Both the position numbers and the translations under genes were made by a program. Source: a virus. From it: 55,001 nt of DNA. Position 1 is the stretch's first letter; every line of letters begins with the position of its first letter. The notes beneath the pieces are model-generated. The model had not been told where the DNA came from. It saw nothing but the letters and a program-made list of their open reading frames with translations, and did not search any database. Positions 9,028 through 29,559 of the stretch are shown here, in pieces. The DNA lies in IMG/VR virus record IMGVR_UViG_3300045015_000042. One strand, 5' to 3'.

Positions 9028-9037
9028 GTCTATACTG
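9028..9037 (+). promoter_or_regulatory. GTCTATACTG promoter-like motif (-10 TATACT) directly after the terminator. About 25 nt upstream of ATG 9063.
   Basis: Member of a recurring motif family (also at 18038, 18647, 19763, 21857, 28618, 29540). Confidence 0.45.
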
Positions 9038-9062
9038 GCTTCGTTCCAAACCGGAGGCAGTC

Positions 9063-9473
9063 ATGAGAGACGAAGAATTTGAACGCCGTTTGAAAGAAAC
9101 CAAGTACGTCGTGGAAGCTTCCAGCGACGAGTGTTTCATGCTGTGGGAGAAGTTCTCCAATGAGTCGATGTTCAAGCGGCCGGACTTCAACGTCCACAAG
9201 TGGGAGCAGTTGAACCCCGGAGTTGCGCCGACCATTGGCAAAATCAAAGGTCGTCCGATCTGCATGCACGTCTGGTGGTACAAGATCGACGGCGTCATGG
9301 TCATGTTCTGGGAAATGACTTCTCAGCTTCAGGACTACGTCATGGCCGAGAAGTGGCTCGAAAAGCACTGCGACCCGAAGGACGACGACGGTCGCTCGGC
9401 AAGCTGCAACTGTGCCAACTTCGCTCACTGTCTGCACTTCATCGCAGACCTCAACAAGAAGGGCAAGAAGTAA
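9063..9473 (+). CDS. Hypothetical protein, 136 aa.
   Basis: Track ORF. GGAGG Shine-Dalgarno. Confidence 0.6.
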   Translation: MRDEEFERRLKETKYVVEASSDECFMLWEKFSNESMFKRPDFNVHKWEQLNPGVAPTIGKIKGRPICMHVWWYKIDGVMVMFWEMTSQLQDYVMAEKWLEKHCDPKDDDGRSASCNCANFAHCLHFIADLNKKGKK

Positions 9474-9475
9474 TC

Positions 9476-9637
9476 ATGTTCCACAAATTCTTCTTCTGGC
9501 TCGGCCAGCAGTGGCAGAAGACCAAGCGGTACTACAACCTGAAGGACAGGTCGCAGACGCACCCGCCGGCCCTTGTGTGGATCGGCGGGGGGATCGCCCT
9601 CGTCGCCCTCTTCCTCCTACTCCGATGGGTGTTCTGA
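9476..9637 (+). CDS. Small membrane protein (53 aa, C-terminal transmembrane helix).
   Basis: In-frame ATG inside track ORF 9200..9637. It starts 3 nt after the previous stop and ends in a TGATG overlap with the next gene. Confidence 0.45.
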   Translation: MFHKFFFWLGQQWQKTKRYYNLKDRSQTHPPALVWIGGGIALVALFLLLRWVF

Positions 9638-10374
9638 TGTCCACAGAAGACAAATACAAGCAGGTTTCATCCTGCGAGACGATGGGACTCGGCGGCGTCG
9701 GAGTGAAGATCCTCGTCAAGTTGCCGGACGGGGTCGCACTCTCGGACGCAGAAGACGCCAACGCAAAGAACGTCGGGTACGACCTGTACCGCCGGCTACA
9801 GAACTTCGTCATTCAATCCGACCCGAAAGAGATCGAGTTCGCGAAAAAAGAAGGGGAAGAACTCCTCGCTCTTTTCGGCGACGAGAAGATCTTCGCGGAG
9901 CCGACTCACAACGAATACTCCTCGGACTCGCTGCGGCCGTGGTTCATCGTCACGACCAAGATCGGTCGCATCAAGATCGGCTGGCGTAAGCGGGTGATCG
10001 TGATCGACTGGTCGGATTCGACCAATAAGGGCCGCGCCGTCGATCTGTTCGCCACCGACGACGTGACCAAAGACCTGCACATGATCCACGCATGGGGCTA
10101 CGAGAAGGCCAAAGAGTACCTTCAGGTACTGTTGGGCCTGTCCGAACCCCAACGTCCATTACCACAAGAGCCGTTTGCTGATTTGCTGAATCAGTGTTCC
10201 GTGAGGCTTCGGAAAGTGATTGATCGAATCGGAATCAAGAACTGGAATGAACTGCTCGAACGAACACGCGAAGACCTTCTCGCAGAAGTGGGTTTCGCCG
10301 CAGGATGCCTCGCCGAACTTGAGAACCTGCTCGTTAAGTTTAAGCAGGTTCTCAAAACCCGTTCGCGTCGTTAG
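9637..10374 (+). CDS. Hypothetical protein (245 aa). The C-terminal ~60 aa look like a helix-hairpin-helix.
   Basis: Start MSTEDKYKQ chosen inside track ORF 9412..10374 because the upstream part overlaps two other genes out of frame. 1-nt stop/start overlap. Confidence 0.5.
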   Translation: MSTEDKYKQVSSCETMGLGGVGVKILVKLPDGVALSDAEDANAKNVGYDLYRRLQNFVIQSDPKEIEFAKKEGEELLALFGDEKIFAEPTHNEYSSDSLRPWFIVTTKIGRIKIGWRKRVIVIDWSDSTNKGRAVDLFATDDVTKDLHMIHAWGYEKAKEYLQVLLGLSEPQRPLPQEPFADLLNQCSVRLRKVIDRIGIKNWNELLERTREDLLAEVGFAAGCLAELENLLVKFKQVLKTRSRR

Positions 10375-10862
10375 TTCTTGTTGTAGACGCTGTTGGCGTA
10401 ATCGCTGCCCGTGGGCCGTAGGATGATTTTGCCCATGCTGTCCGACTGACGGTCGAACTGCATGTCGCGGAAGTCTTCCTCGGCCTCTTTGCTCTTGCGG
10501 AAGAACCGCTTCAGTTCGTCGGCCACCGCCTCAACGATCCGCTTTGCCGCCTCTTCTTCTTTGATGTCGTCCATCATGAAGTCTTCGTACATCTCTTCCA
10601 GATCGAGCAGGTACGGACGGCCGTAAGGTTCGGTGTTCTCCCGCTTCTGAACTCGGTACGCAATCGTGTCACCAACTTGATACACCCGCACGCCCCCGAA
10701 GTCGCTGTTGTCGTTGGGCGAAAGCAGGTAGATGTACGGAGTGTCTTCATCGAGAAACGGCTTCGCCTTCATCTGCCCACGCTGGAAGACCTGTTCCAGA
10801 ATGTGCAGGTGCCGCTTGCCGTCTCGCTTCCGTTTGTTGACAAATTCGAGGAAGGTTTCCAT
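10371..10862 (-). CDS. Hypothetical protein, 163 aa.
   Basis: Track ORF. Convergent with 9637..10374. Confidence 0.55.
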   Translation of the reverse strand: METFLEFVNKRKRDGKRHLHILEQVFQRGQMKAKPFLDEDTPYIYLLSPNDNSDFGGVRVYQVGDTIAYRVQKRENTEPYGRPYLLDLEEMYEDFMMDDIKEEEAAKRIVEAVADELKRFFRKSKEAEEDFRDMQFDRQSDSMGKIILRPTGSDYANSVYNKN

Positions 10863-11116
10863 TAAACTCCGTGGCGTGCTTTGACACTTTTGTATTTGCC
10901 TACCAACACCTCGTAACTCATCGTTGGTGTTTCGCCAATTTCTACTGCTCTCAGTGAGTTCAGAGCGGAATAAAACAAAGAGTCCAACTCATCTGCCAGA
11001 GCTTTGTAGTTTGTCTCTGGCTTCGCGTGGCGGTTTTTGCTCCACGCGGCCATCGCCGCAGCCTTGTCGGGATCGACGCCTTCGCGAAGTCCGATGTAGT
11101 CGCTAAACTTGTTCAT
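10862..11116 (-). CDS. Hypothetical protein (~84 aa, start MNKFSDY).
   Basis: Internal ATG of the track ORF, forming a TAATG overlap with the stop of 11116..12591. Confidence 0.5.
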   Translation of the reverse strand: MNKFSDYIGLREGVDPDKAAAMAAWSKNRHAKPETNYKALADELDSLFYSALNSLRAVEIGETPTMSYEVLVGKYKSVKARHGV

Positions 11117-28627: not shown

Positions 28628-28646
28628 GGGGCATGTGGTTTCCCCA

Positions 28647-28964
28647 ATGAGGCGAATCATGTGGACCGATGAACTGGTCGCGCGGCTGAAGAAGTACGTC
28701 GAGGCCAACAGGTTCTTCGTCGTCAAGTACCGTGGCAGCCGCGTCTACAACGTGGACGAGCGAAACAAGGAGTACAACGACACCGGCTGGCCCGCCTACT
28801 ATCTCAGGCCGTGCTACGACGACCCCTGTGACTTGGAGAAGACTCAGCCGTCCGACTTCCAAGTCTTCCTGCTCAAGCCGGTGGAATGGACGTTGGACGA
28901 GCCGGATTGGAGCGAGGCCGACGCCGAATCTTGGAACGAATACGTCAAAGCAACACAAAAGTAA
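28647..28964 (+). CDS. Hypothetical protein, ~105 aa.
   Basis: In-frame ATG. The track start is a GTG at 28635. Confidence 0.5.
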   Translation: MRRIMWTDELVARLKKYVEANRFFVVKYRGSRVYNVDERNKEYNDTGWPAYYLRPCYDDPCDLEKTQPSDFQVFLLKPVEWTLDEPDWSEADAESWNEYVKATQK

Positions 28965-28973
28965 TCTTCACAT

Positions 28974-29013
28974 CCCCCGTAAGTTGGCTTACAATGGAGC
29001 CAACTTACGGGGG
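28974..29013 (+). promoter_or_regulatory. 15-bp perfect GC-rich hairpin (CCCCCGTAAGTTGGC / GCCAACTTACGGGGG, loop TTACAATGGA) ending 7 nt before ATG 29020. The 3' arm contains the GGGGG Shine-Dalgarno, so it is a candidate translational control element.
   Basis: Read directly. No U-run, so not a classical terminator. Confidence 0.5.
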
Positions 29014-29019
29014 ATCGTC

Positions 29020-29520
29020 ATGTCCAAAGCAGGCAAAATGCACGGCGAGATCGTCAGCGAAGAAGAAGTCGCGAAGGGACTCGGCTTCGCAAACGTCGAT
29101 GAGTTCCGCCGCTGGCAAACCGAACTCGGCCACAAGAAAGGGGAACTCGAATTCGCACTTTCCGAAGCCAAGCGGGAGTCGCGCCGCTTCCGATGGGCCG
29201 GAATGCGTATGGAGTTCATGCTCGGCAAGGCCGAAGCCTATCTCCAGACCGAACTCAACGCCGCCAAGCACCACGTCGCCAAACTCGAAAATTCCGGGGT
29301 AATGGCTGAAGGGGCCATGAACGAGAACTCGGAGATGGCGGCAGTCAAAGACACCATCGAGATTCTCGAAAAGCTGCTCCTCGGTATCCGCGTCGTCTGC
29401 AACAGGGACGTTGACTGGAAGCACGTTCTGGAAGACTGGCTCGGTCAGTTCAACAAGTCCGATGAAGAGATCTTTAAGGCCAAACAAGCGGCCGAAGCCC
29501 AACCGGAAAGTGGTTCTTGA
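29020..29520 (+). CDS. Coiled-coil hypothetical protein, 166 aa.
   Basis: In-frame ATG (MSKAGKMHG). Confidence 0.55.
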   Translation: MSKAGKMHGEIVSEEEVAKGLGFANVDEFRRWQTELGHKKGELEFALSEAKRESRRFRWAGMRMEFMLGKAEAYLQTELNAAKHHVAKLENSGVMAEGAMNENSEMAAVKDTIEILEKLLLGIRVVCNRDVDWKHVLEDWLGQFNKSDEEIFKAKQAAEAQPESGS

Positions 29521-29528
29521 ATCCCGAA

Positions 29529-29559
29529 GGGACACCGGCGTCTATACTGCCGGTGTCCC
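29529..29559 (+). promoter_or_regulatory. 11-bp hairpin GGGACACCGGC/GCCGGTGTCCC whose 9-nt loop is exactly GTCTATACT.
   Basis: Sits between stop 29520 and ATG 29577. Confidence 0.5.

Follow-up and report, generated by a model that had tools for sequence, protein, structure and literature searches.

A conserved CTATACT word ahead of plus-strand genes in a huge-phage genome: a putative -35-independent promoter class with a sigma-S-like signature

Extended -10 promoters (TGnTATAAT) are built without a -35 element; bases upstream of the -10 hexamer substitute for the -35 contact, and such promoters can serve a subset of the genes of a phage. The middle and late promoters of Thermus phage P23-45 are of this kind and are favoured after gp39 and gp76 have modified the host RNA polymerase. 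Sigma-S (RpoS) reads an extended -10 element with the consensus TCTATACTTAA, where selectivity is determined mainly by C(-13), a base contacted by K173, with a contribution of T(-14) (PMC3367168). The -10 box of Pseudomonas RpoS is CTATACT, without a distinctive -35 element (PMC9793710). Some huge phages encode a sigma70, and RNA polymerase is among the genes of huge phages (PMC7162821). In this study we describe a recurrent word of the same -35-less design in a 55,001-nucleotide (nt) stretch of viral DNA (IMG/VR record IMGVR_UViG_3300045015_000042), which as a whole is called the window here. Aligned over 20 sites of four related genomes the word reads TTTG-Y-CTATACT-G, and the part TCTATACT agrees exactly with that sigma-S consensus over its first eight positions. 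On balance, and with considerable reserve, we think it probable that the word is the extended -10 element of a -35-independent promoter class heading plus-strand units in one module of the genome, and that its reader is most likely a specialised sigma factor.

The exact decamer GTCTATACTG is present four times in the window (9028, 18647, 19763 and 29540), only on the plus strand, against 0.00 copies expected from 100 dinucleotide shuffles. With at most one mismatch to it there are nine matches where 0.68 would be expected, among them the copy at 28618 (GTCTATATTG); further variants are located at 18038 (GGCTATACTT) and 21857 (ATCTATAACTG). Leaving the last of these to be discussed below, the window has six sites, and every one of them lies upstream of a co-oriented start codon with a GGAG-type ribosome site between motif and start. 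From the end of the motif to the start codon we measured 25, 16, 34, 71, 31 and 27 nt in order along the window, a range of 16-71 nt that replaces the 20-75 nt given in the initial annotation. Single-mismatch matches on the minus strand number two (13198 and 38137), both within coding sequence. The initial annotation had reported near-identical decamers on the plus strand only, ahead of plus-strand starts, and the motif scan bears this out: the distribution is non-random, being enriched, strand-specific and always ahead of co-oriented starts. A weight matrix built from all sites found no further convincing copy in 64 kb and none before any minus-strand gene; the motif is therefore limited to a plus-strand module at about 9-30 kb. 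In IMG/VR the 14-mer TTTTGTCTATACTG gave only single matches among the matches listed, which is chance level.

Strong comparative evidence comes from three syntenic relatives, retrieved via homologues of the MVP-like and AAA proteins of the window. Relative A (loci L017 and L048) has 86% identity in the MVP-like protein, 85% in the AAA ATPase and 53% GC; relative B (L018 and L049; NCBI JAWVGZ010000010.1, 586 kb) has 75%, 68% and 46%, respectively, and relative C (L050) has 72% in the AAA ATPase and 58% GC. Together with the window they form a set of 160 kb with a GC content of 45-58%. The gene strand carries all 20 CTATACT copies, five per genome, and the opposite strand has none, against about 1.4 and 1.0 copies, respectively, predicted by shuffles (0.07-0.77 per genome per strand). 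At all 20 sites a co-oriented start codon follows 24-105 nt downstream. The CTATACT core stands at orthologous positions in the relatives with diverged flanks. Behind the terminator of the MVP-like gene the orthologous copy is found in three genomes, the longest unchanged block being TTTTTGTCTATA-TG; in L017 and L018 the stem of that terminator has been rewritten with compensating changes. In all four genomes there are orthologous sites before the 181-amino-acid (aa) gene, before the 368-aa gene and within the 3' end of the latter. Relative C has two extra sites of its own, evidence of site turnover. The antisense near-match at 13198, a negative control, is not conserved in the relatives. Logan/JGI contigs matched by exact look-up of window proteins are all 100% identical to the window and therefore of no use for conservation.

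Numbered as a -10 region, the hexamer TATACT occupies -12 to -7 at five of the six window sites; the sixth, at 28618, has TATATT, and its orthologue has TATACT. C at -13 is found at 6/6 window sites including 28618 and is invariant in the alignments of orthologous sites, while the invariance of C-13 and the hexamer among the 20 aligned sites is no independent test, since that set was picked on CTATACT. Upstream, -18 to -16 is T-rich with T commonest at -16 (11/20), -15 is G in 15/20, and -14 is T in 10, C in 6, A in 2 and G in 2, with T in all four exact decamers of the window. Position -6 is G in 13/20, and downstream of it no conservation was seen across the 20 aligned sites. The best match to TTGACA at 16-18 nt spacing averages 2.9/6 over the 20 sites against a background of 2.4/6, and a match of at least 4/6 occurs at only four of them, so the sites are not canonical -35/-10 promoters; one site of relative B has a perfect TTGACA at 18-nt spacing. 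Nor is this the canonical TGn extension with T-15 and G-14: TG lies one base further upstream, at -16/-15, followed by Y and C-13. The proposal that a TATACT -10 box preceded by TC, mostly without a -35, marks a promoter class of its own is supported by conservation, strand bias and -35 scores.

Taken one by one, the six plus-strand sites stand in rather different surroundings. Site 1 (TTTTT-GTCTATACTG, 9023..9037) lies 25 nt ahead of a 136-aa gene starting at 9063; its orthologues, GTCTATATTG at L017 9103 and GTCTATACTG at L018 12700, are the longest invariant run of a diverged spacer. Site 2 is the variant GGCTATACTT (18038..18047), 16 nt ahead of the ATG at 18064 of the 181-aa gene. With its A/T-rich discriminator it comes nearest of all copies to the sigma-S consensus (CTATACTT(A)A), and CTATACTT is unchanged in all four genomes. 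A second box, TATCTAGTC (18021..18029, no strand assigned), lies in the same divergent intergenic region, is likewise invariant in four genomes and is in each of them exactly 10 nt from the CTATACT core; it could serve as promoter for the divergent 186-aa gene on the minus strand or as the site of a regulator. A minus-strand near-match at 13198 with a second TATCTAGTC box was considered as an antisense promoter and rejected, as neither box is conserved. Site 3 (TTT-GTCTATACTG, 18644..18656) is 34 nt ahead of the 368-aa gene (start 18691); the orthologue in L017 at 18508 is GTCTATACTG, that in L050 at 2494 is GCCTATACTG, and L049 has two CTATACT copies. Site 4 (GTCTATACTG, 19763..19772) falls in the final 35 nt of the 368-aa gene; a start at 19844 follows after 71 nt, and the site is a putative internal promoter. 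Here Leu-Tyr is encoded as CTA-TAC-T in 4/4 genomes, and CTA makes up 3% of leucine codons; that the rare codon is kept in four genomes therefore points to selection on the DNA word. Site 5 (GTCTATATTG, 28618..28627) begins one base behind a stop codon, and 31 nt separate its end from the start codon at 28659; site 6 (GTCTATACTG, 29540..29549) lies 27 nt before the start at 29577. Both have the exact GTCTATACTG as orthologue in L048, at 12877 and 13859, respectively.

The word contains A-11 and T-7, which region 2 of sigma70-family factors needs, and is for that reason read as a -10 box. TATACT would then be the -12 to -7 hexamer with these two bases essential, a sigma70-family factor on a bacterial-type RNA polymerase would melt it, with transcription starting about 7 nt downstream, and the invariant C-13, the T or C at -14, G-15 and the T-rich stretch from -18 to -16 would replace the -35 contact. 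We hold a specialised sigma to be the most likely reader, rather than plain sigma70, because TCTATACT is a sigma-S-type extended -10: sigma-S promoters of E. coli and Pseudomonas have the same T-C-TATACT at -14 to -7, T-14 being frequent in the phage motif, with C-13 invariant and no distinctive -35, and sites of the 18038 type share their A/T-rich discriminator as well. Lacour and Landini reportedly described a TG(N)0-2C pattern, and in the phage motif TG is 1-2 nt upstream of C-13. The reader could be the sigma for stationary phase or general stress of the host, a sigma encoded by the phage or a holoenzyme that the phage has modified, and the motif would then mark a temporal or physiological class distinct from the canonical promoters of the genome.

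Several observations weigh against this reading. Most sites have a G-rich -6 where sigma-S promoters have TTAA, and the A/T-rich discriminator is confined to the 18038 group (CTATACTTCAAAAAA); C stands at -14 in 6/20 sites, and cellular sigma-S promoters are far less strictly conserved than the phage motif. The relative B site with TTGACA at 18 nt indicates that plain sigma70 could read some copies, the window offers six sites only, and the start sites are predicted from sequence. Pfam and tblastn searches found no sigma gene in the roughly 64 kb seen of a genome of at least 254 kb (a quarter or less, so that most of it is unseen) or in the pieces of the relatives. The tblastn query was an approximate sequence of E. 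coli sigma70 regions 2-4, and its only match is in the distant locus L060. This contig, which carries a distant MVP homologue and is filed as a Parcubacteria metagenome-assembled genome (MAG), encodes at 2855-3553 a protein of the sigma70 family that shares 58% identity with regions 2-4 of E. coli RpoD.

Hairpins accompany some of the sites, and the initial annotation had tied four copies to them. These ties exist, with corrections to two stems (9 bp at 18647 and 12 bp at 29540). The intrinsic terminator of the MVP-like gene (8991..9029, plus strand) is built of two 19-nt arms (8991-9009 and 9011-9029) and a T run, which together with the bases GT overlaps the 5' end of site 1; the hairpin is conserved in three genomes, retained in L017 and L018 with other stem sequences. 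Upstream of site 3 a 9-bp hairpin (18613..18646, plus strand; arms 18613-18621 and 18638-18646, 16-nt loop) stops one base short of the motif and is a candidate weak terminator; it is present in the window and, with a different sequence, in relative A (L017), and absent in B (L049) and C (L050). A 7-bp hairpin covers the 3' end of site 5 (28624..28648, plus strand; arm ATTGGGG 28624-28630, partner 28642-28648) and would lie in the 5' leader; relative A has a different hairpin at the same place. Site 6 itself coincides with the 9-nt loop GTCTATACT of a 12-bp hairpin (29528..29560, plus strand; stem 29528-29539 and 29549-29560), which is lineage-specific, as there is none at the orthologous site of the closest relative, A. 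Most sites have no hairpin, and where there is one it may be upstream, downstream or enclosing. The upstream terminators are conserved and the stem and loop placements at 28618 and 29540 are local; we therefore regard the hairpins as neighbours, that is, as terminators of the preceding unit or local structures, and not as parts of the recognition element. The motif itself forms no terminator hairpin; intrinsic terminators adjoin at 8991-9029 and 15165-15194. The suggested coupling of terminator and promoter thus stands as an arrangement, found after the MVP terminator in three genomes and after the 18647 hairpin in 2/4, and falls as a property of the element. The suggested regulation at the RNA level is not supported, given that the loop at 29540 is absent in the relative, most sites are free of hairpins and nothing in the window matches Rfam.

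The sites might instead be ordinary strong promoters of the host's primary sigma70-type holoenzyme, the decamer being a good -10 box with a TG-like extension that has been copied or selected for strength. We find this doubtful, and yet it carries real weight. TATACT shares five of six bases with TATAAT, including the A-11 and T-7 that any group-1 sigma needs, and the same genome clearly uses TTGACA-N17-TAnnnT promoters. One relative B site combines TTGACA-N18-TATACT, loci L030, L046 and L055 pair TTGACA or TTGACT with CTATACT, and at the corresponding position in more distant MVP-encoding phages (about 40% identity) TGnTAnAAT-like boxes come after a terminator. What speaks for the specialised class is that C-13, C-8 and TTTG are kept at 45-58% GC while the canonical -10 hexamers drift, that TG lies one base upstream of the canonical TGn register, that a -35 is essentially absent, and that the motif is limited to one module and missing from all minus-strand units. 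A DNA-binding regulator of phage or host that reads an extended -10-like word as its operator, and so switches the downstream units, is improbable to our mind. Rigid conservation over 10-13 nt suits a protein operator better than a -10 hexamer, the TATCTAGTC box at fixed spacing from site 2 would fit, and a precedent for sigma-S-type -10 regions exists in FliZ, a repressor recognising TC(-14/-13) with T-12 and T-7 (PMC3367168). The motif is asymmetric, however, with one copy per site; most sites have no other recognisable -10 before the start, which would leave the promoter missing, and the site behind the terminator needs a new promoter for the next gene.

Slighter still is the chance that the word is the promoter of a sigma-independent phage RNA polymerase, either of the single-subunit T7 or N4 type or of the phiKZ-type non-virion multisubunit kind, with hairpins contributing as in N4. 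Huge and jumbo phages frequently have their own RNA polymerases, the motif is short, rigid, -35-less and phage-specific in its distribution, and one copy sits in a hairpin loop, much like the conserved word of N4 virion-RNA-polymerase promoters. In N4, however, the hairpins are obligatory, with a 5-7-bp stem and a 3-nt loop, whereas here they are variable, unconserved and missing at most sites, with loops of 9-16 nt; the 9-nt loop at 29540 is found at 1/6 sites and its orthologue lacks it. About 13 nt are conserved here against about 20-23 bp spanning the start site in T7-type promoters, the word is a textbook sigma70-family -10 (TAnnnT with C-13), and no RNA polymerase gene was among the Pfam hits in the sequence seen, which is an incomplete genome. 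The late promoters of T4 (TATAAATA at -10, read with gp55, gp33 and the sliding clamp) also show a single rigid -35-less word that defines a temporal class of phage genes. CTATACT differs from TATAAATA, no gp55-like gene was detected in the sequence seen, and a cellular-type sigma region 2/3.0 is the likelier means of recognition; nor was an appropriator gene, as in a P23-45-type system, identified there. Least probable of all seems an RNA-level element in read-through transcripts, be it a site of processing or cleavage, a piece of a terminator or an antitermination signal of the nut type. Several copies do touch hairpins, and the 5' TTTGT of two of them lies in a terminator U-tract or stem. 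Against this, hairpin position is inconsistent and not conserved at 29540, the window has no Rfam match, conservation is on the -10-like core and not on structure, and the terminator-adjacent copy must act as a promoter for the next gene. A nut-like boxA plus boxB arrangement was considered separately and rejected on account of the inconsistent hairpin positions.

Turning to more distant phages with an MVP-like gene, CTATACT is seen in promoter-like positions in L024, L026, L027, L029 and L047. In these loci the word can stand only 6-9 nt before an ATG (L024 7058, L026 6919, L029 7281 and L047 7708; further cases are L024 19328, L026 17605, L029 21918 and L027 5061). In four orthologous cases of CTATACT-N7-9-ATG it doubles as Leu-Tyr codons in the terminal part of the gene upstream. 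This spacing suggests that the same -10 box might drive leaderless mRNAs in these phages. The 595-kb phage LR756511 (43% amino-acid identity) was considered as another user of the motif and rejected, its GTCTATA words lying within coding sequence.

The CTATACT class is best read as separate from the TTGACA-N17-TAnnnT promoters of the same genome, where a TTGACA-like hexamer is present at 6533, 15153, 21837 and 28967. The variant at 21857, which the initial annotation had counted with the motif, belongs to one of these: a canonical TTTACA-N17-TATAAC promoter (21837..21865, plus strand) downstream of a terminator at 21792-21821, with the same hexamers as that at 15153-15181. L017 and L018 retain the latter (15153..15194, plus strand), and its spacer and -10 are contained in a terminator hairpin (15165-15194, with a T run behind it), where they occupy the 5' arm and the loop. 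Ahead of the MVP-like gene lies TTGACA-N17-TAAGTT (6533..6561, plus strand), where L017 has TTGACA-N17-TACTTT, and further canonical promoters are TTGATT-N17-TAATTT at 5932 and TTCACA-N17-TACAAT at 28967. Their -10 hexamers drift between relatives (TAAGTT/TACTTT; TAATTT/TAACTT/TAAACT), unlike CTATACT. Generic scans for sigma70 promoters and terminators showed no enrichment over shuffles. At three places (15153-15194, 28967-29015 and 29528-29560) a strong hairpin holds a -10 hexamer in its loop and has the spacer for its 5' arm, and such boxes may represent an overlapping terminator/promoter insulator design. The genome also has a second and far more abundant motif, with about 21 copies on the minus strand of the window at 45316-55001 and continuing in contig L011 to about 63.9 kb. 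It consists of CGCAA[AT][AT][CT]CGGAGAC, some 16-18 nt and then [GT]TGTAGGGTTGTC, and is found in the gap before most small genes of that strand, GGAG plus ATG following after 15-35 nt. Many copies form an inverted repeat (GAGACAACCCTAC / GTAGGGTTGTCTC), several keep both boxes without a hairpin, and no T run follows; judged from its sequence and placement it looks like a bipartite promoter class for a block of small, possibly early, genes.

The window is a gene-dense phage region of about 57% GC, mostly ORFan. Its MVP-like protein is found identical on a JGI contig of 253,983 bp, and one 100%-identical contig (L011) lengthens the window sequence to 63.9 kb. The MVP-like protein has 2210 homologues at E<=1e-10, many of them on contigs of 250-690 kb (the largest 693 kb), and further ones in the 462-735-kb phages of Al-Shayeb et al.; relatives sit on contigs of 586-693 kb. 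From these homologues on 250-690-kb contigs and in 462-735-kb phages it follows that the element comes from an uncultivated huge phage, of whose genome the window is part. Megablast of window positions 8-30 kb against GenBank phages gave no match, and scans of IMG/VR with the MVP-like and 368-aa proteins singly found no relatives. Distant MVP loci (36-41%) from a scan of genome contigs are filed as Candidate Phyla Radiation (CPR) or other MAGs and give no host hint, and related contigs have been assigned to unrelated MAGs. The contigs with MVP homologues that GTDB lists under Patescibacteria/CPR and other MAGs are mis-binned if they come from phages, which the homologues on huge-phage genomes suggest.

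MVP-like proteins (Pfam MVP_shoulder and Vault_3) are common and well conserved in huge phages (window 6938-8977; loci L019-L061), and a strong terminator stands 3' of the gene in nearly all of the loci L019-L061 examined. In the window the gene is split: an open reading frame (ORF) at 6615-6941 corresponds to residues 1-99 of an intact 864-aa relative (85% identity), and the ORF at 6938-8977 covers most of the remaining protein, with about 80 residues missing or in another frame. As the same split is found in an independent Logan contig spanning the stretch, it is put down to a frameshift, a pseudogene or a systematic error of assembly. A Pfam scan of the ORFs at 1-5.9 kb gave no match, and the window contains no tRNA. 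Identical 9-10-mers at 1388, 1640 and 1892 reveal a 252-nt periodicity (about 1388-2150), probably inside a giant minus-strand gene whose orthologues in the relatives have 1731 aa (cut by the contig end) and 2707 aa. Finally, a perfect 127-bp direct repeat (43824-43950 and 44958-45084) is the break point of several metagenome assemblies of this genome.

Promoters with a -10 box and no -35 are a familiar type of element in phages, and it is the sigma-S-type signature that gives the motif a moderate and testable interest. A bolder proposal, which we put forward only tentatively and consider rather unlikely as it stands, is that a clade of huge phages runs one module on sigma-S-type promoters (T-14, C-13, TATACT, no -35), tied to the host stress sigma or to a converged phage sigma. 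If the host stationary-phase or general-stress sigma were the reader, expression of the module would be tuned to starved, slow-growing hosts; if a phage sigma were, it would have converged on a helix-3.0 specificity like that of sigma-S. Huge phages are known nearly only from metagenomes, and their transcription programmes are uncharted. The CTATACT class, the canonical promoters and the motif of the small-gene block together allow the transcription units of this clade, and its probable temporal classes, to be mapped for the first time, and the motif can be used for annotating related genomes. The match to the sigma-S signature thereby offers a testable hypothesis on how phage genes may be expressed in starved environmental hosts.

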